From IMG/VR virus record IMGVR_UViG_3300037697_000007, positions 1 through 57,561 of that record: DNA of 57,561 bases; one strand, given 5' to 3'. The position numbers and the translations under genes are program-made. Numbering within the stretch: the first letter of the stretch is position 1; every line of letters starts with the position of its first letter. A model generated the notes under the pieces. It worked only from the letters and a program-made list of their open reading frames with translations. It had not been told where the DNA came from and searched no databases. Below are positions 1 through 57,561 of this stretch, one piece after another. Source of the stretch: a virus (lineage: Duplodnaviria; Caudoviricetes).

Positions 1-127
1 GCCAAATTCAACAATGGCTCCGAACCTGAGTACTTGAAGCAGAATCCCGCCAGCACCCATTGCGAGAAATAAGAAAACGGCCCAATGGACGTAGTATTCA
101 GAATCGGTTTTTTTATTTTTCACGGCT
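1..127. repeat. Terminal direct repeat, copy 1 (circular assembly overlap)
   Basis: 1-127 is identical to 57435-57561; 127 is a common assembler k-mer. Confidence 0.95.
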
Positions 128-297
128 TGAAGATCGTAATAAACAAGCCGCATAATACATTATTCTATGTAGGGAGTGGGTGTGGATTAGGCTTCGGCAT
201 GAACGTCCAGCGCCGCACCTCGCTGCACCGGACGCACTGAACTTTCGTGCCTTTCCTGTCGGCGTACAGGGTCAGCCATTTGTGGATGCACACGGCT

Positions 298-471
298 TCA
301 CCTACGACCCTTCTTTGCGTTTCTGCGCAGTCTCGCAGTCCCAGTGTTTCTGGTCTTGCTCTTAGGCCAGTTTGTTCTATTGGTGACGAGCGAACCTGTT
401 GGGTAAACCATATCAGCTTGCATGCCCGCAGCCATCGCAAGCATCAAAGAACCGGCGAGCGACCGTCTCAT
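298..471 (-). CDS. Small basic hypothetical protein
   Basis: MRRSLAGSLMLA...; GAGG RBS; part of the leftward ORF chain. Confidence 0.45.
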   Translation of the reverse strand: MRRSLAGSLMLAMAAGMQADMVYPTGSLVTNRTNWPKSKTRNTGTARLRRNAKKGRR

Positions 472-523
472 GGCTTCACCTCGTCGGCCATGCGCGCCAT
501 CTTTGGCGAGTAGTACGTCGTCT

Positions 524-742
524 TCATTTCTTCTCTCCTGTTCCTGTCGGTGGAATATGAATACGCGCCAGCTTAAAGCTTGCTCCACATCTGGCACAGT
601 CCGCAAAAATAATTGCATGCTGCCTACCGCACCCATCCACTGCGCCTAATATTACCGTTGCGTATTCTTCTCCCGGCGAATACCAGCCTTTCGTGGAATA
701 TATCGGTGGCTTGTGCCCGAATACGTGGCAGGCTAGTTTCAT
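524..742 (-). CDS. Hypothetical protein with C/H zinc-ribbon-like motifs
   Basis: LACHVFGH...CARCG; ATGA overlap with the upstream gene, GGAG RBS. Confidence 0.7.
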   Translation of the reverse strand: MKLACHVFGHKPPIYSTKGWYSPGEEYATVILGAVDGCGRQHAIIFADCARCGASFKLARIHIPPTGTGEKK

Positions 743-1380
743 TTCTTCTCTCCTGTTATTCCGTGGGCGGCTTCTATTGCTCTGGCTATTTGGTGCTTAT
801 ACAGTCCAGCAATATGCCCATACTGCTTAACACATCCAGCCCATAGATCCCCTATCTCTGCATCACTCAGCGGCTTCTGCTGCGGGAATGCTTGTGCGCC
901 TGTCGATCCACAGAATGGGCATTCGATGCTTTGCCAACCAAGAGGGGCCAACTTCTCATAGTCAACAGGATCCTGTTCCATCAGCTCCTTCTCCAGCTCT
1001 GCGCGTCCGGCTTGCTTGCCCTCTTCCCTAGCTTGGGATATGAAATCCGTGTCGCTGCCCGACTGCCCAACGCAATTATTGTGGAATTCCACGCATCGGT
1101 TATATCCACGCTGATACTCTGCTGCTTTGATTGCGGCGAGCTCTTCCATTCCGCTCAGTCTAACTTCCTCTATACACGGCTCATCCAGATCATCCCCGCG
1201 TGTGTATATCTCCCTGATTCTGCTGATGATAGCCTGCTGCGCTGCCAGCTTCTCGCGCAGTTTTGCAATCTCCTTGTCCTTATGCTTGGCGCAGGTCTTC
1301 CAGAAGTATTCTGCACATTGCTTCATATCCACATAGGTGAAGTTCCGCCATGTGACTTCAAAGCCGTTCTGTTCAGTCAT
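739..1380 (-). CDS. Mosaic phage hypothetical protein (CPFCG; C-terminal ARAIEAAHGI)
   Basis: 213-aa ORF with ATGA overlaps; C-terminal motif common in betaproteobacterial phage early genes. Confidence 0.75.
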   Translation of the reverse strand: MTEQNGFEVTWRNFTYVDMKQCAEYFWKTCAKHKDKEIAKLREKLAAQQAIISRIREIYTRGDDLDEPCIEEVRLSGMEELAAIKAAEYQRGYNRCVEFHNNCVGQSGSDTDFISQAREEGKQAGRAELEKELMEQDPVDYEKLAPLGWQSIECPFCGSTGAQAFPQQKPLSDAEIGDLWAGCVKQYGHIAGLYKHQIARAIEAAHGITGEKK

Positions 1381-1652
1381 TTCGATTCTCCCAAGTTGCG
1401 GATTGCTCTTGCTGCATCTTTAAGCGCGTTGTTGTACGCTATATCTCCCTCACAGCATCCTTCGTCGTCAATACTATTCCCAACATACTCAGCTTCGCAA
1501 ACGTCTGCATCAATCTCCCTCTGGTGCGCCGCGATGGTGTTGGCAAAGTCGATAAGTTGCAAAATAAGTGCCGCTTTGTGTTTCGGACCAGCCCATAGAG
1601 AAAGCCCGGTTTGTTCAGCCAGCCGCTTCACTACGCTTGCGTCAATAGGCAT
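1377..1652 (-). CDS. Hypothetical protein
   Basis: 91-aa ORF coupled to its neighbours. Confidence 0.65.
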   Translation of the reverse strand: MPIDASVVKRLAEQTGLSLWAGPKHKAALILQLIDFANTIAAHQREIDADVCEAEYVGNSIDDEGCCEGDIAYNNALKDAARAIRNLGESK

Positions 1653-1947
1653 CCCGTATCCCTTCCACCAGTTTAATTTCCTTCCGGCTCTTACAAGCCG
1701 TAACGCGACCGTCTACTACGAATCGAGCGCGACCACCCAAGACCGTATCCATCTGCCTGATTACTTCCATCTGATCTTGGACGGCTGCTTTCTGATTGGT
1801 CACTTCCTCGCGCTGGTCGAGATTGTCTAATAGCGCAACGATCACAGCCAAAACTATTGCAGCTTTCATCGTAAAACCTACACGTCGGGTCAACGGGTTG
1901 TGCTTGCTCTTCCACGGGTGCAGAGTGTAGCGGCGTATGCGGTTCAT
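1642..1947 (-). CDS. Hypothetical protein with one hydrophobic segment
   Basis: AAIVLAVIVALL segment; lies in the ORF chain. Confidence 0.55.
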   Translation of the reverse strand: MNRIRRYTLHPWKSKHNPLTRRVGFTMKAAIVLAVIVALLDNLDQREEVTNQKAAVQDQMEVIRQMDTVLGGRARFVVDGRVTACKSRKEIKLVEGIRDAY

Positions 1948-1952
1948 TCACG

Positions 1953-2156
1953 TCACCCACTTGTTTTTTCTGCCGCGACGATAATCTTCCTGCATTCATC
2001 CATCAACCCGGATATGGTGCATTCAGGCATTTTCTGTGAGTTTTTTCCGTTATATCTCAACCAGTATCGCCCCTTGAACGGTTGCGGCAAAAGCTCCAAC
2101 TTGTGCAACTTCCCACCTGCTGCGATAGAAATTCTAACTGTTGCTTTTTGCCTCAA
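1953..2156 (-). CDS. Hypothetical basic protein
   Basis: AAGGGG RBS before a TTG start; directly downstream of a near-consensus promoter. Confidence 0.6.
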   Translation of the reverse strand: MRQKATVRISIAAGGKLHKLELLPQPFKGRYWLRYNGKNSQKMPECTISGLMDECRKIIVAAEKTSG

Positions 2157-2188
2157 AATATAACCCCTTAAATCTTCTGGATGCGCCG

Positions 2189-2217
2189 ATTTTAATAGTC
2201 TCGCACGATTGTGTCAA
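2189..2217 (-). promoter_or_regulatory. Sigma70 promoter TTGACA-17-TAAAAT (leftward)
   Basis: Near-consensus hexamers with 17-bp spacer and AT-rich upstream tract. Confidence 0.75.
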
Positions 2218-2247
2218 TTTATTTAAAAATTAACCATGCGGTGCATA

Positions 2248-2433
2248 TCATTCGTTCGGCGTCTTAGGGGGTTTCCAGCCGAGCGAAATCAAGGCTTGTC
2301 GAATCTGCTCATCTTTGGTGTAAATCACCTGCCGCATGATCTGCTCACGAACTCCGTTTGCGACGTACAAAGTGTCCTGCGTAATTTCCCCGTACTTACC
2401 TGTAGAGGTTTCGACAATGTATCCGCTGTCCAT
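2248..2433 (-). CDS. Hypothetical protein in gene cassette 1 (reverse orientation)
   Basis: GAGGAG RBS; MDSGYIVE...KTPNE; stop lies just outside the GTTCGGC core site. Confidence 0.65.
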   Translation of the reverse strand: MDSGYIVETSTGKYGEITQDTLYVANGVREQIMRQVIYTKDEQIRQALISLGWKPPKTPNE

Positions 2434-2467
2434 TTCCACTCCTCTCAAAAGTCGGCTCCGGCAAGAC

Positions 2468-2529
2468 GCCGAACCCGTCATTCAACCCGGACGCGCAAAA
2501 GCGCGCGCCGGTTAATTCAAACGTTAGGT
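2468..2529 (+). other. attC site 1
   Basis: GCCGAAC...TTCAACCCGG-GCGC AAAA GCGC-CCGGTTAA...GTTAGGT imperfect palindrome, 62 bp. Confidence 0.85.
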
Positions 2530-2535
2530 TTTATC

Positions 2536-2892
2536 ATGAACATGCTCATTCTCCTTGCTAGTCTACTCGCCACATTGACAGCCGCGCTTGTGCTGGCAAA
2601 GAGTATCGTTGAATACCAGTCCGCATTGCTTAAGTACAAAATAGATGTTGCAAGCAACGCTCCTGAAATTACAATTTCAACAGCTATCCAGCGTCTGGCG
2701 AAAGTTAAGCGGGATATTGTAAATGTCGGCGGGGTTTGTTTGATTGCGAGCATTTCCCTTGCAGCGTTCATGATTTTTGGCCCTTTGGCTGATAAACATT
2801 TAACGGTTTCGAGTGCAGCACTTATATCTTTAATTTTTTGCCTAGTTGTTATTACGCAAACATGTTTCATCATTGGCACAAAACAAACCTAA
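2536..2892 (+). CDS. Cassette 2 membrane protein (about 3 TM segments), AT-rich
   Basis: ATG a few nt after the core site; TAA stop within ACCTAAC; opposite strand to the flanking phage genes. Confidence 0.8.
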   Translation: MNMLILLASLLATLTAALVLAKSIVEYQSALLKYKIDVASNAPEITISTAIQRLAKVKRDIVNVGGVCLIASISLAAFMIFGPLADKHLTVSSAALISLIFCLVVITQTCFIIGTKQT

Positions 2893-2951
2893 CCCTACGT
2901 TCAACCCGGACGGCGCAAAAGCGCGCCAGCCGGTGAACTAAGACGTTAGGC
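2887..2951 (+). other. attC site 2
   Basis: ACCTAAC...GTTCAACCCGG...GCGC AAAA GCGC...CCGGTGAAC...GTTAGGC, 65 bp, closely similar to attC1. Confidence 0.85.
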
Positions 2952-3095
2952 CCCATACATCCAGCAGTACAACATCACAGCCAGAATGCAGGCCATCAGC
3001 ACGCCGCCCGCAATCGCCGCCCATGCTGGGGTCGAAAGATCCGGATCTACCAACGGCGACCATCGCCCGGTGCGATACGGCTCACGATAGGCCAT
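2946..3095 (-). CDS. Small membrane protein
   Basis: AGGAG RBS; MAYREPY...AAIAGGVLMACILAVMLYCWMYGA (hand-translated). Confidence 0.55.
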   Translation of the reverse strand: MAYREPYRTGRWSPLVDPDLSTPAWAAIAGGVLMACILAVMLYCWMYGA

Positions 3096-3300
3096 TGCGA
3101 TCTCCTACAATCTTCCGCGCCGCAGACATCACATCCCGCTTGCTGATCGCCTGACGTAACGCCTCCAACTTGTTGCGCGCTATCTCTTTCGCATGCAGAT
3201 ATTCAATCGTGGCTTTGTCCGCTGCATCGTCGAGTTCGTCCTGATACTCGGCAAGTCTGCACATCAGCATGGCGTGCTCTTTGATGGATATGGTTGTCAT
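3082..3300 (-). CDS. Hypothetical protein
   Basis: 72-aa helical ORF with ATGA overlap. Confidence 0.65.
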   Translation of the reverse strand: MTTISIKEHAMLMCRLAEYQDELDDAADKATIEYLHAKEIARNKLEALRQAISKRDVMSAARKIVGDRNGLS

Positions 3301-3719
3301 TTTTTGGCCCCCAGAGCAATCTTTATTGCATCACGTGCAGCACGATTTGACGATTGAAACTCAAGTAAATATGCGATTTTTTCCGCATCCTCGCGCCGCA
3401 TCTCCACCATCACAGTGGCTGGCTTTGGCGGATTCCATGAATACGCGTCAAAGTTTCCGCGAGGGTTCCACGTCGAATCGACAATGCATGGCCCGTATCC
3501 GTCCGAATGGTACAGCTCATCGCCAACAAACACCGCCTTGCCCTCGACAACCGCGAGAGGAAATTCATATAAATGCGGGTATAAGTTCCACATCATATTC
3601 TTTATTTCTCTGATTACGCCACCAGCCTTGCATACCTGAATTATTCCTGCGGACTCTTGCATCTTGATACTGTTTCCAGCCGCTATATACAGGTCTGCGC
3701 GTGTTTTAATTTCTCTCAT
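3297..3719 (-). CDS. Hypothetical protein
   Basis: 140-aa ORF, GGAG RBS. Confidence 0.7.
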   Translation of the reverse strand: MREIKTRADLYIAAGNSIKMQESAGIIQVCKAGGVIREIKNMMWNLYPHLYEFPLAVVEGKAVFVGDELYHSDGYGPCIVDSTWNPRGNFDAYSWNPPKPATVMVEMRREDAEKIAYLLEFQSSNRAARDAIKIALGAKK

Positions 3720-3742
3720 TTCATTCTCCGCTGTTGTTTGTG

Positions 3743-3988
3743 TTAGGCGCTCAGTCCTGATAAGTCTTTCGGCTTATCCCAAAATTTGAATGTTCTGTGT
3801 CCCAAAGTATGTTCGCCTTCTACCCACCCGAGTTTTACCAGTGCATCAAAACCATGCGCCCATCCACCGCTAGGGCCTCCGGCATTTTCACATTCGCACA
3901 GCCTTATAGCCCGCTCATACTCGACTCTGCTTACAGGCCCAAGTTTGGCTATTTCGTCGTCCGTCAATTCGTATGCTTGTTTCATCAT
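3743..3988 (-). CDS. Hypothetical protein
   Basis: ORF track; start codon uncertain. Confidence 0.55.
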   Translation of the reverse strand: MMKQAYELTDDEIAKLGPVSRVEYERAIRLCECENAGGPSGGWAHGFDALVKLGWVEGEHTLGHRTFKFWDKPKDLSGLSA

Positions 3989-4082
3989 TCGACTCTTCGT
4001 TGTTGGTGATGGGTGAATCATGCCAGTGTTTTACCTGCCAATCTATAGCCCGAAGGTGTTGGTATCACGTAACACTTTAGTG

Positions 4083-4247
4083 TTACTTCGCCAACGAATC
4101 GGCGAACCAGTCGAGCATCAGCTTTATCTGCGCATCCATAGATTCGATGGCATCATGTGCGGCTGCGTAATCGCCTTTCATGGCGGCATCCTCTGCCACT
4201 TTCAGCAGTCGTTTGGCTTCCAGCATGGCTTCGATGTAGTCGGTCAT
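4083..4247 (-). CDS. Small hypothetical protein
   Basis: MTDYIEAMLEAK... hand-translated; GAGG RBS, ATGA overlap. Confidence 0.55.
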   Translation of the reverse strand: MTDYIEAMLEAKRLLKVAEDAAMKGDYAAAHDAIESMDAQIKLMLDWFADSLAK

Positions 4248-4408
4248 TTCATTTTCCTCAGTTCGTCAGCAGATTCCCGTGCTTGCTTTGCTGCCTCATC
4301 GATGTAGCCCTTTTCAATCATCTCCGCAAGAACGTCGAAGATTGGAGCAAATTTAGATGCGACAGAAACAAAGTTCCGACGCTTATGCCGTTTTTGCTTG
4401 GCGTTCAT
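4244..4408 (-). CDS. Small hypothetical protein
   Basis: MNAKQKRHKRR... hand-translated; GGAGG RBS, ATGA overlap. Confidence 0.55.
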   Translation of the reverse strand: MNAKQKRHKRRNFVSVASKFAPIFDVLAEMIEKGYIDEAAKQARESADELRKMK

Positions 4409-4554
4409 TCTTCCTCCCCATCTGTTTCAATTGCTGCGATATGGTCTGATGTCGGATCAGACAAAACAAGCTCGGCAAACAGCTTGCGCGCTTCGTCGGC
4501 GTTGTCGGCTTCGATCAGGTGCGAGCCTCGGGTGTAGCACTCAAAGAGCGGCAT
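4405..4554 (-). CDS. Small acidic hypothetical protein
   Basis: MPLFECYTRGSHLIEADNADEARKLF... hand-translated. Confidence 0.5.
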   Translation of the reverse strand: MPLFECYTRGSHLIEADNADEARKLFAELVLSDPTSDHIAAIETDGEEE

Positions 4555-4556
4555 GG

Positions 4557-5036
4557 CTACATCGCCCTCCAGCACACATCTGCGCCGCGATGCCCGTGCC
4601 GCATGAATGGGATGTCGTCATCGAAGTTGTCGAAGCTTCCGCTGCCTGACTTCGGAATGTCTGCACTAGGCGTTGGAGCCTGTCGCGCTGGTTTGTTTTC
4701 GCTGGCCTGTTGTTCGCCTTGCGCCTTGCCGCCCAGCAGCGCCAGGTCATTAACCCGAACGTCCAGCGATACACCTTTCCCGCCGTCTTTCTGGTCGTAG
4801 CTGCGCAAGGTCACTTCTCCGCTGATGCCGACAAGCTGGCCCTTGCCGAGGTACGGCAGCACCGATTCTCCGCGCTTGCCGAACATGGCACAATTGGCCC
4901 ACGTCGTTTTCTCTTTGTCGCCGTAGCCTGATTTGACGGCAACGGAGAACGATACGACGCTATCGCCGCCAGTGGTGAAACGTTGCTCGGCATCTTTTCC
5001 GAGGTTGCCGGTGAATGTCCAGTTGTTGAGTCCCAT
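4557..5036 (-). CDS. ssb: Single-stranded DNA-binding protein
   Basis: FTGNLGKDAE OB-fold start, YLGKGQLVGISG, DDDIPF tip. Confidence 0.95.
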   Translation of the reverse strand: MGLNNWTFTGNLGKDAEQRFTTGGDSVVSFSVAVKSGYGDKEKTTWANCAMFGKRGESVLPYLGKGQLVGISGEVTLRSYDQKDGGKGVSLDVRVNDLALLGGKAQGEQQASENKPARQAPTPSADIPKSGSGSFDNFDDDIPFMRHGHRGADVCWRAM

Positions 5037-5064
5037 GATTTTTCCTTATGCGAAGGTGATGCGG

Positions 5065-6756
5065 TTATTGTTCGACTGCGGCAAAGCTCATGTTCATCAG
5101 CCAATCAACAACCGTTTCGGGCGGCACGTTGAAAGTTTCGGCAAGTGCTGCGATGATCTCTTTGTCGGTCGGACGGACGTGGCGTGCTGCGTTTGTGTCG
5201 GATACTGCTTTATCTGAAAGCACAGGAACTGGAGAGGGTTTTTTCGCCATTACAGCGGAGGCAGCATCGTAAGCGTCTTGTTGCTCATTCGATCTATGTA
5301 TTGCATTCGCCTCGGCCTCAACCTTGGCGCGTGCAGCATCTTCCGCCGCCTGCTTTGCCCGTTCTGCGGCAAGGATAGCCTCAGCTTCCGCTTGCGCCTT
5401 GGCGGTGGCCTTACGCTCTTCATCGGCCTGTATTGCAGCGCGTTGTTCTTCCGCCTTAGCGGTTTCTTCCGCCTTGTGCTTGTCGATTCTCCCGGTAACA
5501 ATCGCCTCGAATGCTTCCTTGCCGTTATTGGCAATGAGCTGCGACAGGTCGGAGAACAGGAATCCGTAACCAGCCGATGACTCTTTACACCACGCCAATT
5601 TTTCGCGCACGTCTTTTGCCGATTGGTCGGCGGCGAACTTGCCATCACGAAGCGCGGTATCGACTGCCTCTTGCATGGCCGACATCTTTTTCATGCCCTT
5701 GATCGCTCCGGCGAAATCAGGCCGCACAACTGCAAGTCGGATCGGCTTCGTTTCAGCTTCGAGCGATTCGACATGCGCGGAGAAATCATTCCCCGCCTTG
5801 GTGACAATAGCCAGCTTGCGCGATTCCTTCTCAGATTTCACCAGCTTGTCCAGCATCAGCCGCTTGTCGCGAAGCTGCGCGGCGATGTGGTCAAGCGTCC
5901 GCACTACTTCGTCTACGGTGGACATCTGCGCAAGTACACTGGCCTTTGTGGATTCCAAATTCGATTCGGCATCCTTGCAGAATTTGACGGTGGATTCAGC
6001 GTCGGCAAAGTCCTGATCGCAAACAAGCTCTGTTTTGATCCCGGCGATGAACGCCGTAGCCGCTTCCTTGAATTCTGACAGGTTGGATGCATTCACCATG
6101 CCGGTCGCCTGAACGAATACGGACGGCAGTGCCTTGATTGTCTCGGCTTTCGGCGATTCCTTCGGCTGTTCAATCTCGCCTGCGGCTAACTTGCGCTTGT
6201 ATTCTTCAACATCTTTATCAAATTGCCGCCAACCTGCCATCAGATGATCTGCTCGTCCCGGCACTGCGCGATATTCCATGCTCACGAACTTCTCTGGCGT
6301 TCCATCAGAAACAACGAACAGCACGTAGTCAAATCCATACACCAGAATCTGCTGCTCAAGCTGCCAGTATTTTGCAGGCGGCAAGTCGCCTGCGCGCACC
6401 GAAGCGGCTAGCGTCTCGTTCCACAGCTTCGCCTCCAGTCCGATGCTATCGCCGAATGTAGCGCCATCTGGCGCGGCGGTAAGATACCCGTCGTCTGTTT
6501 CGGCAGATGACGGCACAAAGTCTTCGCCGACAACTTCCTCTGCCAATGCGCGAGCGCCAATCTCGGAAACATTCCCTTTATCCAGCAAATACTTTTGCTG
6601 CCAGTCGGAGAATTCTTTACCGAACCCTGTAGCCATCATGTGAATCAGCTCTGTTCGGCTAGTTGTTGGGTCGCAGCCCATCATCGCCGGTGCTTTGCTT
6701 GCGCTGCGGGATGCTATCCATTCCGCGCTTCCAGCCTTCATTGTAATTTTTCTCAT
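5065..6756 (-). CDS. YqaJ/lambda-Exo-like exonuclease with a long coiled-coil C-terminus
   Basis: SAS..PAMMG, A.PDG, GLEAK and WQLEQQ motifs; adjacent to Bet. Confidence 0.85.
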   Translation of the reverse strand: MRKITMKAGSAEWIASRSASKAPAMMGCDPTTSRTELIHMMATGFGKEFSDWQQKYLLDKGNVSEIGARALAEEVVGEDFVPSSAETDDGYLTAAPDGATFGDSIGLEAKLWNETLAASVRAGDLPPAKYWQLEQQILVYGFDYVLFVVSDGTPEKFVSMEYRAVPGRADHLMAGWRQFDKDVEEYKRKLAAGEIEQPKESPKAETIKALPSVFVQATGMVNASNLSEFKEAATAFIAGIKTELVCDQDFADAESTVKFCKDAESNLESTKASVLAQMSTVDEVVRTLDHIAAQLRDKRLMLDKLVKSEKESRKLAIVTKAGNDFSAHVESLEAETKPIRLAVVRPDFAGAIKGMKKMSAMQEAVDTALRDGKFAADQSAKDVREKLAWCKESSAGYGFLFSDLSQLIANNGKEAFEAIVTGRIDKHKAEETAKAEEQRAAIQADEERKATAKAQAEAEAILAAERAKQAAEDAARAKVEAEANAIHRSNEQQDAYDAASAVMAKKPSPVPVLSDKAVSDTNAARHVRPTDKEIIAALAETFNVPPETVVDWLMNMSFAAVEQ

Positions 6757-7541
6757 TGCACACCGCCTTTCTGTTCCCAAGATTGAATTTCTACGATCAC
6801 CTCAGCCGGCAGAATGTACTTAGCCGAAAGGAAGTCGATAACGCCTTGCGCCGTGCCGTCCCCGTTCTGTACCTTGGACTTGGTGCTGAACTTGGTGACT
6901 ACGCCCTCTTGGTCGATTACGTCGTGGGTATGCTTGTCCATCAGCACTTCCATAGTCAGGGTGGCGCGCTCCGGCTTTACCTCTTTCACTACGGTTGCAG
7001 TGCCGTCGATTGTCCCAATGTCGCGCTCTACGATCCGCTCTGCTTCATCTTGGTCGTAGATGCCAGCGAATCCGAAGGCAAGCCGTGCGGCCTGAATCAT
7101 GGCCTTATGGCGCAGCATGCGGCGCGGGTGAGACTTCCACGCCGGAGAGTTGTCGCGTCGGCACTCAGCGAGATATTCCGTCGCGCTAATCGAATGCGAA
7201 CGATCTTTACGATAAATAATGCAGGTGCATGATGCGGCCTCTTCGTCATACTTGAAGTCCATCCCGTCGAACTGTTGGTGGTTGTTCATGATGCGCGACC
7301 ATCCATCCACGCCGACAACAGGAACTATGCCGCCCTTGTCAGGGAAGGCGAAGATTTCCTTGGTGAACGGGTTGAGTCCGTACTGATTGGCAACCACCAG
7401 CAGGGCGGTCATTTGCGCATCAGATACCTGCGTACCGCTTTTGAATGCGGTGGCCTTCAATACGTCCGTCAGGCCGGAGCCGTCGCCCATGTCGAACTGC
7501 GCGGCGAGTTTGTTTGTCAGTGTTGCCAGTGCTGTGCTCAT
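6753..7541 (-). CDS. bet: Phage recombination protein Bet (RecT/Red-beta family)
   Basis: QYGLNPFTKEIFAFP, VVGVDGW, WKSHPRRMLRHKAMIQAARLAFGFAGIYDQDE. Confidence 0.95.
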   Translation of the reverse strand: MSTALATLTNKLAAQFDMGDGSGLTDVLKATAFKSGTQVSDAQMTALLVVANQYGLNPFTKEIFAFPDKGGIVPVVGVDGWSRIMNNHQQFDGMDFKYDEEAASCTCIIYRKDRSHSISATEYLAECRRDNSPAWKSHPRRMLRHKAMIQAARLAFGFAGIYDQDEAERIVERDIGTIDGTATVVKEVKPERATLTMEVLMDKHTHDVIDQEGVVTKFSTKSKVQNGDGTAQGVIDFLSAKYILPAEVIVEIQSWEQKGGVQ

Positions 7542-7723
7542 TTTCTTTCCCCTTGTTGTTTACTCAATTTCTCCGCCGCCCTATCCCGCCTAAGTTGCGC
7601 CATGCTCCTGATGTGGTGCGATACCAGCCAAGCAATGTGCATATCGGCATGGTGGCGCATCTTGATTGTCTCGACTCTGGCGCGCTCTACCAGATGATCG
7701 ATGTTCGGTTGCCAGTCGGACAT
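7538..7723 (-). CDS. Hypothetical protein
   Basis: 61 aa, ATGA overlap with bet. Confidence 0.6.
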   Translation of the reverse strand: MSDWQPNIDHLVERARVETIKMRHHADMHIAWLVSHHIRSMAQLRRDRAAEKLSKQQGERK

Positions 7724-7725
7724 TT

Positions 7726-8274
7726 TTACTCACCATCGCTTCTATCGATCAACACCGCCCGAGTGTAGTCTGGGTAATAGGCTACATGGTGCGCGTTCGC
7801 TTCGTTGAATTCGGTGATGGCCTTTTGCAATTCAATCATCCCGCGCAAATCATTAAGGTCGAAATCTTCGTATGCGTCATCCATCACGGATTCGGTTATC
7901 GAGTCAGCATCCAATCGCACGAACTGAACGGGCTTCGTCGCCCATACATATTCCGGGTATTCCGTCGGCAACAGATCGTCCAGCAAAGTCGAAACATCGC
8001 TGTAGAATTCCTCGCCGTGGAATATCTGCCCGCTCCATGATGTGAGCTTTTCAGCTTTGTCGAACAATGCGCGCTCTTTTTCTGCAGCGCGCTTATCCAT
8101 GCATGCATCGCAGATTGTGCGGAACTCACCGCAATGCTCGCCGCAGATTGTGCATACCCACTGCTTGCAGCATTCGCTCGCCATCGTCTCGGTGCTGTGT
8201 ACTCGCTTGCACTTCTCGCACCAGTACACGCCGGCTGGCTTGCCGTCTTCTAGGTATAGTTGTTTGGCGTTCAT
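7726..8274 (-). CDS. Hypothetical protein with three CxxC pairs
   Basis: CEKC, CTIC, CDAC; GGAG RBS before MNAKQLY. Confidence 0.75.
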   Translation of the reverse strand: MNAKQLYLEDGKPAGVYWCEKCKRVHSTETMASECCKQWVCTICGEHCGEFRTICDACMDKRAAEKERALFDKAEKLTSWSGQIFHGEEFYSDVSTLLDDLLPTEYPEYVWATKPVQFVRLDADSITESVMDDAYEDFDLNDLRGMIELQKAITEFNEANAHHVAYYPDYTRAVLIDRSDGE

Positions 8275-8275
8275 T

Positions 8276-8449
8276 TCAATCTCCATCTTCCGCGTCGAAT
8301 CCGTTAAGCATTTCCCACCACGTACCATCGTTATCATCCGATAATTCCAGCGGAAAATCGTCTGGCTTTTCTGCATGTTCCTTCCGCCAGTACACTTCAA
8401 AATCAACAATGTTCTGGCGTGCTTCGGCTAGGAATTCATCAAGTGTCAT
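8276..8449 (-). CDS. Small acidic hypothetical protein
   Basis: MTLDEFLAEARQNIVDFEVYW... hand-translated; AAGGAG RBS. Confidence 0.65.
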   Translation of the reverse strand: MTLDEFLAEARQNIVDFEVYWRKEHAEKPDDFPLELSDDNDGTWWEMLNGFDAEDGD

Positions 8450-8594
8450 TTCAATCTCCTTTATTTTGGGCGATACAATTCTCTAAGGGGCAATGAAACA
8501 ACCATAGCCTTCCTTCTCCATCCCTGACGTGTAGTGCAGGAACCAAGTGCGCATGACGAGTTACTTCCATTCCACATCAAAGACATTCTGCCGC

Positions 8595-8960
8595 TTAATC
8601 TTTGATGGTTGTGCGATACCGCAACCAAGTTCGCGAGGCTTGCTGCATGGGGCTATGCCAGCCTATGTTTACGGTGCAACTCGCCCATGTAGGCGTACTT
8701 TCTATCGCGTCACTTGCGGCAGCAAAAGGCGTAAAAAAGCCCGAATTGAAAAGGATTCGGTTGAACTGTCTAGCAAGGCGGAAATTGGTTAGGACGACTT
8801 TTGCCTTACTGAACACCGAACCCTTATCAATACGGGCTGATAGCGTCCTAACCAAAACCGCACCATTTGACCGTTCAAAGCCAATTGCTGCGGGTGAAAC
8901 AATAAATCCATTCTGCAATTTTCGCAACTCCTTTTTACTCCAGCATCCCAACAATCCCAT
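8595..8960 (-). CDS. Hypothetical protein (start uncertain)
   Basis: ORF track; AT-rich. Confidence 0.45.
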   Translation of the reverse strand: MGLLGCWSKKELRKLQNGFIVSPAAIGFERSNGAVLVRTLSARIDKGSVFSKAKVVLTNFRLARQFNRILFNSGFFTPFAAASDAIESTPTWASCTVNIGWHSPMQQASRTWLRYRTTIKD

Positions 8961-9069
8961 AAGCCAGCAGCAGCACGATCAGCACCAGCGCGGTGTATCG
9001 CGGCCCCATTGCGTTCTCGATTGCCGACCAGCGGCCTTCGCCCATCTTGTCCAGGCGCTGCGGCTTCAT
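8935..9069 (-). CDS. Small membrane protein
   Basis: MKPQRL...ALVLIVLLLAYGIVGMLE hand-translated; ATGA overlap. Confidence 0.55.
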   Translation of the reverse strand: MKPQRLDKMGEGRWSAIENAMGPRYTALVLIVLLLAYGIVGMLE

Positions 9070-9275
9070 GGCTGGCTCAACACGATATACCCGATCACAA
9101 CCACTGCCAGCCCGTACACAACCAGCACGAAGCCAAAATTGAAGTTGGAAATATCCTCGATCTCTTCGTGTTCGTTCGCCAGAACGATATGCTCATCGCG
9201 ACCGAATGCCTCTTTAGTGGTGCGCGGGAATCGGTGGCCAGCGTTGCCGTATTCGGCGTATAGGTTATCTGTCAT
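9066..9275 (-). CDS. Small membrane protein (RFPRTTKEAFG motif)
   Basis: C-terminal TM segment; motif typical of betaproteobacterial phage early ORFs. Confidence 0.65.
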   Translation of the reverse strand: MTDNLYAEYGNAGHRFPRTTKEAFGRDEHIVLANEHEEIEDISNFNFGFVLVVYGLAVVVIGYIVLSQP

Positions 9276-9290
9276 TTTGCGGCCTCGGCT

Positions 9291-9485
9291 TTAGCGATTG
9301 CAGCGCGCCACGAATTCAGCTTCCAGCCGATCCAATTCAGCGATGCGCTCGGCCTCGGTTTGCGGCTTGCCGAACAAGCGCGCCATCGCGCCATCCACAG
9401 CGTCCATCATCGGATTGGCTTGCGCCAGAAATTGCGGCAGGCCCATCGCCTGAGTTCCGTCGCAGAGTGATTTGATTTCGGTCAT
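9291..9485 (-). CDS. Hypothetical protein
   Basis: 64 aa, GAGG RBS. Confidence 0.55.
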   Translation of the reverse strand: MTEIKSLCDGTQAMGLPQFLAQANPMMDAVDGAMARLFGKPQTEAERIAELDRLEAEFVARCNR

Positions 9486-9769
9486 TTTAGGCCTCGAATA
9501 TACTCAACTGGGTCATCCTCACCAGTTTCATCGTCTTGCCAACTTACCCATCCCGGAGTGCCTTCTCCGTCACTATTTTCGTCCCACATATTCAAACCGC
9601 CAGCGTTGCAGTAGTCCGGCTTGATGCGGTTCTCGTATTGGAAGATGTCGTAGTTGGCAAGCACGTCCATTACTTTCACACCTTCTTCAACGCTTTTAAC
9701 GTCCACGTTAAACGCCTTCATCGGCACTTGTGGAACCCACCATACTTGCAGCTTGATTTTCATCTTCAT
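9482..9769 (-). CDS. P22 gp17-like (superinfection/anti-exclusion family) protein
   Basis: KLQVWWVPQVPMKAF...DIFQYENRIKPDYCNAGGL matches this family from memory. Confidence 0.75.
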   Translation of the reverse strand: MKMKIKLQVWWVPQVPMKAFNVDVKSVEEGVKVMDVLANYDIFQYENRIKPDYCNAGGLNMWDENSDGEGTPGWVSWQDDETGEDDPVEYIRGLK

Positions 9770-9773
9770 CCCC

Positions 9774-9971
9774 TTAGTTGATTAGGCTGCTGTTAAAGCC
9801 GCAGCTCGCATCCCTTGCCCCATACATTTCCCAGTAAAATGCGGTTGCGTAGTCGAATGGATTATTTATTGGCTCTATATCAGGCGGTTTTTCTTTGGGT
9901 TTTCCGCCTGCCTTGCGTGGAATGTCGCTCGTTGAGCGCATCACCACCAAAGTCATTAAAAATGCGATCAT
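9774..9971 (-). CDS. Hypothetical protein
   Basis: GGAG RBS, 65 aa. Confidence 0.45.
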   Translation of the reverse strand: MIAFLMTLVVMRSTSDIPRKAGGKPKEKPPDIEPINNPFDYATAFYWEMYGARDASCGFNSSLIN

Positions 9972-10102
9972 TAAAAGCTCCGGTTGTTTGTGGCACTTAA
10001 AGCAGTTCCCGCATCCTGAGTCCCCGGTATCCGCGCCCGTAGTCGTTTTCCCTGTTTAACTCAGCCTCCGTTTAACGCCCAGCGGTTCGCGGCGTTTACT
10101 TT

Positions 10103-10288
10103 TTACGACCGCGACCCCGACCGCGACCGCGACCCCGACCGCGACCGCGACCCCGACCGCGACCACGACCCCGACCCCGACCGCGACCGCGACCCCGACC
10201 GCGACCGCGACCCCGACCCCGACCCCGACCGCGACCACGACCGCGACCACGACCAATCAAGCCCGGTACGCAAAGCCGCTTGGTTCAT
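10103..10288 (-). CDS. Ser-Arg/Gly/Trp dipeptide-repeat peptide
   Basis: MNQAALRTGLD then (S-X) repeats with X = R/G/W; GGAG RBS and ATGA overlap with the upstream gene. Confidence 0.7.
   Translation of the reverse strand: MNQAALRTGLDWSWSRSWSRSGSGSGSRSRSGSRSRSGSGSWSRSGSRSRSGSRSRSGSRS
10106..10254. repeat. Hexamer tandem repeat GACC(G/C/A)C, about 24 units
   Basis: Directly visible; minus strand reads TCG-(C/G/T)GG. Confidence 0.95.
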
Positions 10289-10641
10289 TTTTGGCTCCGC
10301 AACGGTTCTTTACCTTTCACGAAGTCCACAATAGACCCGCAGGACACGCCTATGACTCCATCAGGGAACGGCTCAACCTCGTTGAATTGCCACTTTTTCA
10401 GCGCATCAGCAAATCGGCCTGTATCTGCTACCCATGCGGCATCTTCGAGCATGACCCACTGCGAGCTTGCGGCTACAACGCGACCGACTTCGATCATAGT
10501 TACAGTACGGATAAGGTACACCGCGCCGATTTCAAAAGGCTGGAACTCGCCTTCGAAAATTGGCTTGATCGTAGCGACATTAATCGAGTCCTCGCGAACG
10601 TACTTCACATCGTCAATCGTTATGGTTTCAGGCTTGCTCAT
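10285..10641 (-). CDS. DUF6948-like small beta-barrel phage protein
   Basis: ITIDDVKYVRED, YLIRTVTMIEVGRV, LEDAAWVADTGRF; family recalled, not searched. Confidence 0.65.
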   Translation of the reverse strand: MSKPETITIDDVKYVREDSINVATIKPIFEGEFQPFEIGAVYLIRTVTMIEVGRVVAASSQWVMLEDAAWVADTGRFADALKKWQFNEVEPFPDGVIGVSCGSIVDFVKGKEPLRSQK

Positions 10642-10744
10642 GTCTACCTCCAATGGTTAATAAGTTCCGTCCAAGGCTTGAAAGGAATCTGTCGCACATC
10701 CTTCGGTCTGGCGGTTTGGTTCGGGTGGCCGCCATCCGTATTGC

Positions 10745-10927
10745 TCAATCTGATCTGTGTGTTACTGTCCACATTACGCATGCGTCAAATTTTAAAAAAC
10801 TGAATCCAACATACCCGCCGCTTTTATTTGAGTAGTGGTGGTGATTCCATAATCCAAATCGGATTGCCGGCAACAGATACCACGGCTGATAAATTGGAAT
10901 GCCAAAATTGATATTAAATTCAATCAT
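10745..10927 (-). CDS. Aromatic-rich hypothetical protein
   Basis: 60-aa ORF in the chain. Confidence 0.45.
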   Translation of the reverse strand: MIEFNINFGIPIYQPWYLLPAIRFGLWNHHHYSNKSGGYVGFSFLKFDACVMWTVTHRSD

Positions 10928-10930
10928 CGT

Positions 10931-11158
10931 TCATACCCATCCGCGCATCGCAATTAAATAAACCGAGTGCGAAATCCTTTCGAGTGGTGTTGTTCGAATT
11001 TCCACATCTTCGGATGGCAGAGTGTCGGAGACTTCGTTTTTCACGTCAACAAGAATCTGTCGCAGTTCGCCAACCATCCAGCTTTCGTGCAGGTTGCATT
11101 TCGTAGCAAGGCATCCTTTCAGATTCCCGCGCATTATGCAGTGTGTGCATTGATCCAT
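10931..11158 (-). CDS. Cys-rich hypothetical protein
   Basis: GGAG RBS; CTHC...C...C..H. Confidence 0.65.
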   Translation of the reverse strand: MDQCTHCIMRGNLKGCLATKCNLHESWMVGELRQILVDVKNEVSDTLPSEDVEIRTTPLERISHSVYLIAMRGWV

Positions 11159-11185
11159 TTAGATTCTCCGGTCTGTATTGCTCAA

Positions 11186-11375
11186 TCGTCAGTAGTCAGG
11201 TGGCCGGTGCTAATCTCCGGCGATGGCATTTAACTACTGGTGGCGCTTATGCCTTCCGGCTATTCGCTTATTAGCCATAGCCCTCCCATACTGGGGCAGA
11301 CCCCGCCCCGCCCGAAGAGTATCCATCTTGAAGCCTCAGCACATTAGCTATGCGCATTCACCTGATTACTGACGA
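11186..11375 (-). ncRNA. Putative structured ncRNA with 17-bp closing stem and loop-loop pairing
   Basis: Inverted repeat 11186-11202/11359-11375; loops of the two terminal hairpins (GCUAAU/AUUAGC) are complementary. Confidence 0.6.
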
Positions 11376-11390
11376 CTGCTTGTTATGGAA

Positions 11391-11522
11391 TCAATGCCGT
11401 TCTTCTTTCACCAGCTTGATAAACAGCGGTATGAAGCCAAAAAGAAACCAGCCTTCCCAATGATAGGTATATGTGTAAAGCACTTTCTTTTTTGTTGTGG
11501 ACCACCATCTAAAAACGATCAT
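11391..11522 (-). CDS. Small hypothetical protein (WEGWFLFGFIPL)
   Basis: AAGGAG RBS, 43 aa hand-translated. Confidence 0.6.
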   Translation of the reverse strand: MIVFRWWSTTKKKVLYTYTYHWEGWFLFGFIPLFIKLVKEERH

Positions 11523-11591
11523 GTTTTTCTCCTTAACAACTCAAACCGTCTTGCAAGTTACGTTCTGCCTTTGCTGCCTTGTAATGGATAG

Positions 11592-11747
11592 TAGTGAGAT
11601 TGGCTAGGACTGGATTCGAACCAGCTCGGGAGATCATCCCCTATATTCCGTACATGGAGCGACCATGCAACCAACCAACCTCCTGCTATCCACTACATTT
11701 ACATTCTCGCTACCGTGTGGCCTTACCGTAGTTCCGCCACTTCACTA
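11592..11747 (-). ncRNA. tRNA-like element (canonical T-arm, no canonical cloverleaf)
   Basis: CTGG-TTCGAAT-CCAG then TCCTAGCCA; D-arm-like GTGGCGGAA..GGTA about 100 nt upstream. Confidence 0.35.
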
Positions 11748-11843
11748 TGACCACGATTCAGACTAACGCCGCGCCGGTATTGCTCTATCCTTTGCGAACC
11801 GCTGCTGGCCTGCCGGTTCGGCACTGCACCGCCGATGTGAAGC

Positions 11844-11872
11844 ATTATGATATAACGTATAGCAAAGCGCAA
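11844..11872 (-). promoter_or_regulatory. Leftward early promoter TTGCGC-17-CATAAT
   Basis: Located at the strand-switch point. Confidence 0.65.
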
Positions 11873-11887
11873 GCGATTTATTCACGA

Positions 11888-11915
11888 TTGCAAGAAAATA
11901 GAATTGCTATATAAT
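11888..11915 (+). promoter_or_regulatory. Rightward early promoter TTGCAA-16-TATAAT (probably leaderless cro mRNA)
   Basis: ATG 5 nt after the -10, no RBS. Confidence 0.65.
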
Positions 11916-11920
11916 GCGGC

Positions 11921-12115
11921 ATGGACAAAAAGAAACTTATTGAGTATCTGGGCGGCACATGCAAGGCTGCGGCTGAGAAGCTCGACTACAAATCGGCTAA
12001 TGCGCGCTGCAACATCCAGCGCCTGAGCGACCCGCTTACACCGCGCCAGGTGCAGACGATCACAATGCGGATGAAGGCCAAGCGGATCAAGATTCCTGAA
12101 TCGTTGAGCGAATAA
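11921..12115 (+). CDS. Cro-like HTH regulator
   Basis: MDKKKLIEYLGG..AAAEKL; first gene of the rightward operon. Confidence 0.6.
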   Translation: MDKKKLIEYLGGTCKAAAEKLDYKSANARCNIQRLSDPLTPRQVQTITMRMKAKRIKIPESLSE

Positions 12116-12126
12116 TGGGGATAAAA

Positions 12127-12324
12127 ATGAAGGAAACGGTGATTACCTTAGCTAAGTTGTTTGCAATGGGTGTAATTGTGGCGGCGGGTGTACGCTTATG
12201 CGAGTGGGTTATTCCGGCCCCAGAAATGCGCGTAATAGTCTGCACTGGAAACGACTTCAACAGCGTTGATACATGCATTAGCGCGGCAGAATTGCTTAAG
12301 GATCGCGCTGGCGTGGCTCCATAA
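12127..12324 (+). CDS. Small membrane protein
   Basis: N-terminal hydrophobic segment. Confidence 0.55.
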   Translation: MKETVITLAKLFAMGVIVAAGVRLCEWVIPAPEMRVIVCTGNDFNSVDTCISAAELLKDRAGVAP

Positions 12325-12335
12325 GCAGGAAACAT

Positions 12336-12710
12336 CCCTGAGCAATCAGGGCTAACAAGATAGGCAACTGACGCAATGTGCAATCAAACAGGCGCGCTAA
12401 TCACGCGAGATGTGATAGCAAACAGGCGTACTCAGACAATAGCCGGGTGATTCTGGCGGCGATATGAAACAGTTGCCTTCCTTGTTGGTGCATCCGAATC
12501 GGTGCGGTATCCAGCGCAAGAGATTGCGCGCTCTGGTATGTAGAGGCCAGACACCAACAAATAGTTGCTAGGGTAGCTCCCTAGATGATGTGGCGTAGAG
12601 TACCGGGATAGCCCACAGAGTAAAGTCAGGCTCAAGCAAAGATTAAGTTCGATGTTTAGCGCGTCCTGAAGAACCCGACCAACAACATACACTCCTCCCC
12701 CTGGAGCTTT
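12336..12710 (+). ncRNA. Highly structured non-coding region (several stem-closed domains)
   Basis: Stems 12336-12351 (GCAA loop), 12362-12370/12470-12478, 12482-12490/12552-12560, 12568-12584. Confidence 0.45.
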
Positions 12711-12740
12711 GACCTGTCCTAGTGGCAGGTCTTTTTTTTT
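12711..12740 (+). terminator. Rho-independent terminator
   Basis: GACCTGTC CTAGT GGCAGGTC followed by T9. Confidence 0.85.
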
Positions 12741-12761
12741 CGTAAATTTTGCTACTTGGTA

Positions 12762-12790
12762 TTGCGGTAGTTGGATGGCGGGGTTACTAT
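12762..12790 (+). promoter_or_regulatory. Promoter TTGCGG-17-TACTAT for the replication operon
   Basis: Follows the terminator and precedes a structured leader. Confidence 0.55.
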
Positions 12791-12935
12791 GCAAATGCGC
12801 ACTGTGAGAGGTGCAAATAAAGCTGGTATCAGAATCTCCTTCGGCGGACGACTTCGGGATACCGTTTCAATGACGTTACACGTCGCGCCAGCCCGGTACT
12901 CTCATACCGAGGCCGTCCGACCAAAGGAGATTCCG

Positions 12936-15605: not shown

Positions 15606-16016
15606 ATGCCTCATAAAAAATCAAGTTTGCCATTTTGCAAAAAATGCAACAAGCCTCTATCAAGACCATTGTGCAAGTTGTGTAGACCTTGTGAAGTAGC
15701 AAGGCGGGCAAGTATGCGAACAATGCCTGTTGATGAATACAGAAAGGAATGGGCTAGAAAGAAAAAGTACAACCTTGAAGTTGGTGAGTTTGATGGCCTC
15801 TGGATTGTTTTTCGCGGTAAATGCGGTATATGCAATAGAGATATGAAGATGCCGGCGAAAGGCCAAGGACAGCAGCTTGATGTTGTCGCAATAGACCATG
15901 ACCATGCAACAGGTTTAGTTAGAGGTTTACTTTGCAACGCTTGCAATAAAGGAATAGGTCTTTTTAATGATAACCCTGAACTACTTAGGAGTGCGGCAAA
16001 ATGGGTAGCGAAATGA
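15606..16016 (+). CDS. Endonuclease VII-type (HNH) homing endonuclease
   Basis: CGIC...IDHDHATGLVRGLLCNACNKGIG; AT-rich. Confidence 0.9.
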   Translation: MPHKKSSLPFCKKCNKPLSRPLCKLCRPCEVARRASMRTMPVDEYRKEWARKKKYNLEVGEFDGLWIVFRGKCGICNRDMKMPAKGQGQQLDVVAIDHDHATGLVRGLLCNACNKGIGLFNDNPELLRSAAKWVAK

Positions 16017-57422: not shown

Positions 57423-57557
57423 TCAGGCAACGGAGCCAAATTCAACAATGGCTCCGAACCTGAGTACTTGAAGCAGAATCCCGCCAGCACCCATTGCGAG
57501 AAATAAGAAAACGGCCCAATGGACGTAGTATTCAGAATCGGTTTTTTTATTTTTCAC
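57423..57557 (-). CDS. Small membrane peptide spanning the circular junction
   Basis: KNKKTDSEYYVHWAVFLFLAMGAGGILLQVLRFG... hand-translated; stop abuts the giant gene's stop. Confidence 0.45.
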   Translation of the reverse strand: MKNKKTDSEYYVHWAVFLFLAMGAGGILLQVLRFGAIVEFGSVA

Positions 57558-57561
57558 GGCT
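57435..57561. repeat. Terminal direct repeat, copy 2
   Basis: Identical to 1-127. Confidence 0.95.

Follow-up and report, generated by a model that had tools for sequence, protein, structure and literature searches.

A two-cassette integron array without an integrase in a complete tailed-phage genome, with cassette turnover at one G|TT site among related phages

Integrons have been studied as bacterial gene-capture devices, whose cassettes include genes of resistance and of anti-phage defence. Here we report integron cassettes in a tailed phage. The window, by which we mean the whole stretch of DNA analysed, is the IMG/VR virus genome IMGVR_UViG_3300037697_000007 with 57,561 bases, which has direct terminal repeats of 127 bp (1-127 = 57435-57561) and is 100% complete according to CheckV. 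Positions 2255-2945 of this complete genome are a two-cassette integron array without an integrase, or CALIN (cluster of attC sites lacking integron-integrase). The exact G|TT junctions of the array, the footprint of circular cassettes, the strand specificity of the attC sites and the turnover at this single site in related phages are, judged from the sequences, most likely the signature of recombination by an integron integrase (IntI). Such phages appear to borrow the integron enzyme of their hosts to swap accessory genes; we infer IntI as the catalyst, its action in trans on the phage DNA and the mode in which the cassette genes are expressed.

The array sits among small early or accessory genes that are transcribed leftward. 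Its two cassettes lie on the plus strand and each ends in an attC site, namely attC1 at 2468-2529 (inverse core GCCGAAC, core GTTAGGT) and attC2 at 2887-2951 (inverse core ACCTAAC, core GTTAGGC). Two covariance models, R1 and R2, which were built in this analysis from natural sequences and are not the reference attC models, give attC1 74.6 and 66.9 bits and attC2 55.8 and 42.6 bits, respectively. On the left, the conserved phage flank ...CATATCATTCG leads into the landing site (2225-2256, plus strand) with the recombination point at G2254|T2255; on the right, the third core GTTAGGC at 2945-2951 places the junction at G2945|T2946. Cassette 1 occupies 2255-2523 (269 bp) with G|TT at both ends, and cassette 2 occupies 2524-2945 (422 bp). 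The start core of cassette 1, GTTCGGCGTCTT at 2254-2265, has its perfect 12-nt reverse complement AAGACGCCGAAC at 2463-2474, and the start core of cassette 2, GTTAGGTTT at 2523-2531, is complementary over 9 nt to AAACCTAAC at 2885-2893. These motifs and coordinates had been reported by an earlier model-made annotation of the DNA (the sequence-only reading), and every one of them is present at its position. The same holds for its claim that the array ends directly after the stop of a phage gene: the terminal GTTAGGC contains, as TTA when read on the plus strand, the stop codon of g49, a 49-aa open reading frame (ORF) on the minus strand at 2946-3095.

The complementarity of a start core to its own inverse core is the footprint expected of a circular intermediate. 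By script comparison it amounts to 7-12 nt in all ten cassettes found in the window and four related contigs, with cores varying between units, compared with 4 nt for the two terminal flanks tested. Since every gene has a start core on one side and the matching inverse core on the other, bare attC elements landing between native phage genes are excluded. In six-frame searches of the whole record, no tyrosine recombinase was matched by PF00589 at E<=1 or by TIGR02249 at E<=10, which bears out the earlier statement that none is recognisable in the genome, and no serine recombinase was matched by PF00239 at E<=1. With two attC sites whose starts are about 420 bp apart and no PF00589 or TIGR02249 match in the complete record, the locus is a CALIN; a complete integron, with intI beside attI and the array, is absent from the window by the same searches.

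The sequence-only reading had proposed that cassette content should vary in relatives, and it does, exactly at G|TT, in four contigs (L050, L052, L053 and L054). L050, a contig from IMG/VR, has 47,023 bases and no PF00589 match, and its completeness by CheckV is 100%. It is a close relative of the window, with 94% identity in the single-stranded DNA-binding (SSB) protein, 94% in the product of g67, the 67-aa gene that adjoins the landing site on the left, and 82% in g101. Its left flank equals that of the window over the last 39 bases, through CATATCATTCGTT, and is unrelated beyond the GTT, where L050 has five other cassettes of 359, 351, 248, 352 and 563 bp, whose attC sites score, in this order, 20.4, 39.3, 54.9, 49 and 12.9 bits with R2. 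On the other side of the arrays, g49 is missing in L050, and the right flanks of the two genomes are non-homologous until the end of g72. The remaining three are metagenome contigs found through g67, whose product is 79-81% identical there. By their PHROG matches, L053 (small and large terminase) and L054 (primase and RNA ligase) are phage contigs, the 1.8-kb L052 having been outside that scan. L053 and L054 have backbones other than that of the window; only g67 is shared among the early proteins of the window tested. In all three contigs the left flank aligns with that of the window, ends in G|TT and is followed by another cassette each, with 10-12 nt of core complementarity. Overall, the five contigs with the g67 module have a cassette at the site in every case, the first cassettes are all different, and the junction is always G|TT.

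The exact 30-nt left flank occurs only in the L050 contig among viral contigs and has zero matches in metagenome contigs, the exact 30-nt right flank has zero matches in viral contigs, and no relatives were found through a 140-aa neighbour gene. Likewise, megablast of window positions 1-8000 and blastn of 2440-2960 against 50,697 phage records returned zero matches. As a separate observation, the more distant relative L041 (RecE-like protein 51% and SSB 91% identical, and a weak g49 homologue) has attC sites elsewhere, in two places (10248-11890, minus strand; 4020-4473, plus strand) and with opposing orientations, and two of its cassettes show, by eye, 8- and 10-nt core complementarity.

It is to be asked whether these differences could have arisen by homologous recombination between phages, after one ancient insertion or array capture and with no repeated action of IntI. 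Such mosaicism has its means at hand, since a RecE-like exonuclease (5065-6780, minus strand) and a RecT/Bet-like annealing protein (6753-7541, minus strand), both identified by PHROG matches, are encoded 2-5 kb from the array. Moreover, the presence of the g67 module on differing backbones is itself mosaic exchange, no empty site has been seen, and the attC sites are similar enough to serve as short homologies. However, the five contigs have five different first cassettes with every break exactly at G|TT, and swaps through flank homology would move whole arrays but make no new junctions at that phosphodiester bond. Different arrays would still need assembly cassette by cassette somewhere, and the right flanks of the window and L050 are non-homologous as far as g72. 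We therefore regard exchange between phages as an unlikely explanation of the turnover.

Cassette 2 connects the array to a bacterium. Its gene encodes a protein of 118 aa (2536-2892, plus strand) in the canonical forward orientation, with the stop codon within the inverse core, and the protein is 86% identical to that of an ORF in the bacterial genome G022 (locus L047). The bacterial ORF is directly followed by an attC site (34.3 bits), with a second attC site (37 bits) 0.8 kb further on. The DNA similarity between the window and this locus begins at ACGTTAGG, upstream of which the two are unrelated, and extends across the ORF into the first half of attC; therefore one cassette is seen in bacterium and phage with the same boundaries. 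Thus the tracing of the array to bacterial integrons, as the sequence-only reading had suggested, leads to a canonical cassette in a bacterial genome. We note on this locus that the cluster (L047:9137-10338) consists of two attC sites with no attC upstream and no intI adjacent, and that the nearest IntI-like fragment, a 66-aa open frame (E 2e-16), is about 30 kb off.

This close bacterial counterpart is also what would be expected if GTTRRRY-like motifs had served for the capture of a piece of a bacterial array through illegitimate or off-target homologous recombination, with the attC sites as passive cargo, and a capture of this kind has been proposed for phage attC clusters in the text of PMC9892861. 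Against it, both outer junctions are exactly G|TT, the start core of cassette 1 complements its own inverse core over 12 nt, as for a circular intermediate, and four more contigs have the same junction with other cassettes. We consider passive capture very improbable.

The identity of the two palindromes as attC sites was established with the natural sequences mentioned above. A degenerate seed pattern, made only of the central and 3' parts common to both sites of the window, was scanned against one-genome-per-species bacterial contigs and against viral contigs, and it matched 26 bacterial loci and 2 viral contigs. The bacterial loci belong mostly to Betaproteobacteria, including Jeongeupia, Chitinibacteraceae, Methylobacillus, Accumulibacter, Sulfuricella, Thiobacillus, Sideroxydans, Giesbergeria and several metagenome-assembled genomes. 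An inverse core ending in AAC, which is not in the pattern, is present in 27 of the 30 untruncated matches (the two of the window included), at a spacing of 6 nt in 26 of the 27 and of 5 nt in L027, and the remaining three matches are one base off. R1, built from 24 bacterial matches, then detects at E<0.01 same-strand arrays at cassette spacing, such as 15 sites in 8 kb of L015 and 8 sites in L007. According to a TIGR02249 search of five genomes, intI remnants adjoin and diverge from the arrays in L015, L007 and L006, and two of the five have an intact intI (486-488 bits). This answers the proposed tracing as well: the attC family of the window is found in bacterial arrays beside intI remnants, mostly in Betaproteobacteria.

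R2 was built from 20 array sites of L015, L007 and L006, three bacterial genomes, which lie beside the intI remnants and do not match the seed pattern. In these 20 sites, the attC pairing scheme has 90.1% of its cells paired and compensatory changes in 6 pairs; none of 500 shuffles reaches the covariation score, and slid controls are only 16-48% paired. Applied to both strands of the 57,561-base window with filters off, R2 finds its two best matches on the plus strand, one at 2459-2535 with 66.9 bits (E 7e-13) and the other at 2878-2957 with 42.6 bits (E 2e-7), and the next-best match has 11.9 bits (E 1.8). On the opposite strand, attC2 has 9.7 bits and attC1 no match at E<=10. The R2 alignment puts both sites on an 18-pair structure, in which paired R''/R' and L''/L' boxes enclose a variable central stem-loop. 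The check with an attC covariance model, which had been put forward in the earlier reading, is therefore positive for both sites, here with our own models R1 and R2.

The cores and folds can be compared with those of attC sites in general, which have the consensus RYYYAAC for the 5' inverse core and GTTRRRY for the 3' core, and which owe their strand selectivity to extrahelical bases that bulge from one arm of the bottom strand. Both cores of attC2 fit this consensus, as does the core GTTAGGT of attC1, with one mismatch (G for Y) in its inverse core GCCGAAC. The core consensus is quoted as G|TTRRRY in the text of PMC9892861. In minimum free energy folding, the bottom strand of attC2 forms the expected hairpin (z = -3.66, 1 of 200 shuffles folding as well), and its predicted single-sided bulges are on the 3' arm, with one exception on the 5' arm. 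For attC1, free folding gives a less clear result (z = -2.33, 4 of 200 shuffles), without the full hairpin. R2, for its part, predicts two unpaired top-strand bases within the L stem.

One may still suppose that the hairpins are regulatory or repeat elements of the phage itself, such as terminators or elements like repetitive extragenic palindromes, which merely resemble attC. They are indeed GC-rich imperfect palindromes between genes, and they have no Rfam family: an Rfam scan of 2000-3200 gave only two chance snoRNA-like matches (E 5.7 and 10), Rfam itself containing no attC family. However, no terminator is called at either hairpin because no T-tract follows, the same family stands in bacterial arrays beside intI, the model score is strand-specific (66.9 bits for attC1 and no match on the other strand), and the core complementarity is particular to each unit. 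This supposition is already contradicted and scarcely credible. That reads of a bacterial integron were chimerically assembled into a phage contig is next to negligible, for although the record is a metagenomic assembly, the array is internal with phage genes on both sides, and four other contigs have cassettes at the same junction.

We observed attC sites of the same family in some other settings as well. One is on a Methylobacter plasmid between two hypothetical genes (L001:7574-8061) with a degenerate GGT core, and another is on a conjugative plasmid of Shewanella decolorationis (L002:8001-8063) beside the gene of a 443-aa site-specific integrase. Two unrelated IMG/VR contigs, L003 (19 kb, 43% complete) and L004 (49.6 kb, 94% complete), have same-strand arrays with 7 and 5 attC matches (E<=0.03) at 6856-10198 (plus strand) and 10685-12806 (minus strand), respectively, and PF00589 has no match in either contig; these arrays may be additional ones of phages or may lie in bacterial DNA that flanks prophages.

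Based on these results, we think it quite likely that IntI of the host acts in trans, and repeatedly, on a conserved landing site of the phage. Because the phage is without a recombinase, the enzyme must come from the host. During infection of an integron-bearing host, its IntI would excise cassettes as circles, and the folded attC bottom strand of a cassette would recombine with the double-stranded G|TT in the phage DNA. The reaction would be of the type attC x attI or attC x attG, which would fix the orientation. The phage site ...CATATCATTCG|TT, which has the g49 stop on one side and the putative g67 promoter on the other, is conserved in the lineage and would have been reused, and this proposed repeated use would be the reason why related phages hold different cassettes there. 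Reversed cassette genes, such as that of cassette 1, would be read by the leftward early transcription of the phage, while forward genes, such as that of cassette 2, would need a promoter of their own or a weak rightward promoter in the flank. The action of IntI in trans is plausible because IntI1 recombines attC sites of virulent phages (PMC9892861) and GWT sites outside integrons serve IntI as points of cassette insertion (bioRxiv 10.1101/2022.09.11.507474), as the texts of these two studies describe. The host is probably a betaproteobacterium, in view of the attC family, the shared cassette 2 and the relatives of the terminase, the closest cultured ones being those of Ralstonia phages (about 42% identity) and Burkholderia phage DC1 (40%).

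With regard to the nature of the landing site, the different first cassettes at a fixed point fit an attI-like behaviour, and we keep both an attI-like site and a reused attG as candidates. The junction is G|TT, fitting the GWT motif of attG sites, in all five contigs; on the other hand, a site with different cassettes in five contigs looks more like attI, with entry at position 1, than like a one-off attG insertion as described in the bioRxiv text. A derivation of the left flank from a known attI was considered and dropped, as it shows only chance-level matches among 40 bacterial loci.

Several results weigh against the proposed use of host IntI at a conserved site, or narrow its basis. The left flank has no significant similarity to the 40 bacterial loci, the intI-adjacent regions included (best E 0.08), which leaves the attI-like nature of the site putative. 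Among the relatives, no empty site was found in viral or metagenome contigs, L052-L054 contain g67 by construction of the search, and attC matches are absent from the fetched parts of L039, L040 and L042-L045, which are more distant relatives. No attC stands beside the bacterial homologue of the cassette-1 gene (none in the one locus fetched, from genome G425) or beside those of the gene in L050 cassette B (none in the four loci fetched); a passage through bacterial integrons is thus only hypothetical for these two reversed genes. Finally, R1 and R2 are only partly independent of the window, because the training sites of R2 were found with R1, which was itself seeded from the window pattern.

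We next describe the cassette genes. The gene of cassette 1 (61 aa, 2248-2433, minus strand) has GAGGAG before its ATG and is reversed relative to attC, that is, co-directional with the early genes of the phage, whose flank supplies its last codon and stop. Its codon score is +0.18, compared with -0.20 for the opposite strand. A homologue of its protein, P0002, is 85% identical and has an extended C-terminus that reads like an attC site translated in reverse, from which we infer the cassette-1 unit in a second context. The protein also matches, with 36-44% identity, the N-terminal part of a 188-aa ORF in the genome G425 (L055:1108-1674, minus strand); this ORF directly follows one of 469 aa, which by eye is cytosine methyltransferase-like. 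The AlphaFold model of the cassette-1 protein (predicted local distance difference test, pLDDT, 60.6) is too poor for a structure search. The protein of cassette 2 looks by eye like a membrane protein, with a hydrophobic N-terminus and C-terminal half. It has four full-length homologues of 118 aa with 68-86% identity, one of them source-named Sulfuricella denitrificans, and nothing at >=0.9 in the ESM Atlas. Neither protein has a family in Pfam, PHROGs, PADLOC or NCBIfam.

The L050 cassette proteins have no family in Pfam, PADLOC or NCBIfam either, an L31 match being far below the cutoff, and the gene of cassette B is phrog_625 (E 3e-37), with homologues in 4 of 400 sampled genomes of the class. 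In L041, whose cassette proteins were compared with Pfam, PHROGs and PADLOC, one reversed cassette gene is phrog_8785 and another has a SpoU methylase domain (SpoU_methylase). Orientations were called by homology and by a codon score trained on the long genes of the phage, replacing longest-ORF calls, which are unreliable. On this basis, five of the seven genes in the window and L050 are reversed (cassette 1 and L050 cassettes A, B, C and E), and two are forward (cassette 2 and L050 cassette D). Four of the five reversed genes have codon scores of +0.11 to +0.24, the remaining one, in L050 C, has -0.07, and the forward genes are near zero. Reversed cassette genes mostly score like phage genes.

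On the left of the landing site, g67 (1953-2156, minus strand) is identified as an ORF with homologues and is the first gene transcribed leftward from the array. Its product is 76-96% identical across the five phage contigs, and the gene adjoins the cassette site in all contigs seen. It has 17 metagenomic clusters, none with a name or a Pfam family, and nothing at >=0.9 in the ESM Atlas. The AlphaFold model (pLDDT 78.5) has three strands and one helix. An arm-type DNA-binding domain, guessed from this fold, was rejected, with no PDB match at E<=0.001 and a best template modelling score of 0.44; a role of g67 at the cassette site is possible. A consensus scan finds a putative strong sigma-70-like promoter, TTGACA-17 nt-TAAAAT (2189-2217, minus strand, 11 of 12 positions), which points into g67 and away from the array, and a putative weak one, TTTAAA-18 nt-TATCAT (2222-2251, plus strand, 9 of 12 positions), which points into the array and ends 3 nt before G|TT. 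These scores are pattern matches only, and the number of such sites in the region is not above that of its shuffles. A hexamer of the type TAT(C/A)A(T/A) is at the same place in all five aligned left flanks. The putative promoter at 2222-2251 may be a counterpart of the integron cassette promoter, and the divergent promoter-like pair recalls, by analogy, the divergent promoters of integrons.

As a further and more tentative reading, which we find possible but rather doubtful, the lineage of this phage, together with a mosaic g67 module found on at least three phage backbones, would maintain an integron platform without an integrase. It would have a dedicated landing site and divergent promoters, exploit any host IntI, and draw on a pool of phage-adapted cassettes (phrog_625, phrog_8785 and genes of the cassette-1 family) that are reversed to attC for transcription by the phage. 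If this is true, cassettes are an accessory-gene currency among phages too, and phages may make new cassettes.

It is of interest to compare the locus with known systems. The sequence-only reading had framed its novelty against attC clusters known from bacterial genomes, and the claim is less new than that: Qi, Rajabal, Ghaly, Tetu and Gillings reported in 2023, according to their text, 17 CALINs in 10,705 genomes of isolated phages, virulent phages included (PMC9892861), so that a phage CALIN is of a kind already known. The same text reports that IntI1 recombines phage-borne attC sites, including those from virulent phages, and proposes that phages have access to the cassette pool, with incorporation by off-target homologous or illegitimate recombination (PMC9892861). 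These CALINs and that of the window have in common at least two attC sites bounding small ORFs and no intI. Unlike the present case, no precise G|TT target, lineage-conserved site or comparison of arrays in relatives is described for them in that text, although its supplementary boundary tables S1 and S2 may be relevant here (PMC9892861). Loot and colleagues, as their text describes, found that IntI inserts cassettes at genomic GWT sites outside integrons, with the orientation set by the strand of the motif and with hotspots (bioRxiv 10.1101/2022.09.11.507474). This attC x attG reaction is an integrase-dependent insertion of cassettes at a short GWT motif, as we propose for the window; however, the targets there are bacterial chromosomes, the word phage being used only twice in that text and in other senses, while the target here is a phage genome. 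In the literature as represented by these texts, we found no phage landing site with exact G|TT junctions, no differing arrays at such a site in relatives and no prevalence of reversed cassettes with phage-family genes, and the supplements of PMC9892861 may hold junction data. Within this range, the fixed site with cassette turnover, the mostly reversed cassette genes of phage type and the cassette shared with a bacterium appear to be new.

The locus shares with a classical integron an array of uniform orientation that has a fixed insertion point at its head, a divergent gene with a predicted adjacent promoter, a possible promoter for the array, the canonical attC architecture and, in cassette 2, the stop of a cassette ORF in the inverse core. 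It differs in having no intI and a flank without detectable similarity to the intI-proximal regions of the bacterial integrons compared, in its dominant transcription from the distal end, and in the reversal of five of seven genes. CALINs and sedentary chromosomal integrons of Betaproteobacteria (loci of Jeongeupia, Methylobacillus, Accumulibacter and Sulfuricella) have the same attC family, and one cassette is shared at 86% protein identity; however, they are chromosomal, are larger (15 sites in 8 kb in L015) and adjoin intI or its remnants. Phage morons and accessory hotspots are alike in consisting of small, variable, non-essential genes between conserved early genes that differ in close relatives. 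They are typically without a defined recombination site and exact boundaries, whereas the units in the window have both, which points to a mechanism of gain and loss. In this respect the locus is natural evidence for how cassettes enter phage DNA, with exact G|TT junctions, a cassette shared with a bacterial array and five contigs varying at one point. In addition, the prevalence of reversed phage-family cassette genes suggests that some cassettes serve phages and not bacteria, which bears on the function of most uncharacterised cassettes and on where cassettes originate. The phage site and the attC sites are directly usable in a standard IntI recombination assay.

Besides the array, the genome has PHROG matches for the large terminase, a portal or head-tail adaptor, a virion structural protein, a DnaB-like helicase, an RNA ligase and a DNA methyltransferase domain. 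An ORF at 4557-5036 is named SSB-like from our reading of its sequence. At 10088-10273 there is a tandem array of CGACCG/CGACCC 6-nt units with 12/18-nt periodicity, comprising 9 overlapping copies of a 72-nt reference; the array is situated in a small ORF of the minus strand (10056-10256). A single ORF of 3,320 aa (47460-57422, plus strand) takes up the final 10 kb of the genome, and its product presumably resembles the giant virion proteins of Bcep22/DC1-like podophages, a group whose terminases rank among the nearest cultured relatives. The RNA ligase (phrog_968, 16001-17002, plus strand) and a 751-aa protein matching a DNA methyltransferase PHROG in its C-terminal third (19447-21702, plus strand) could have a role against host defence.

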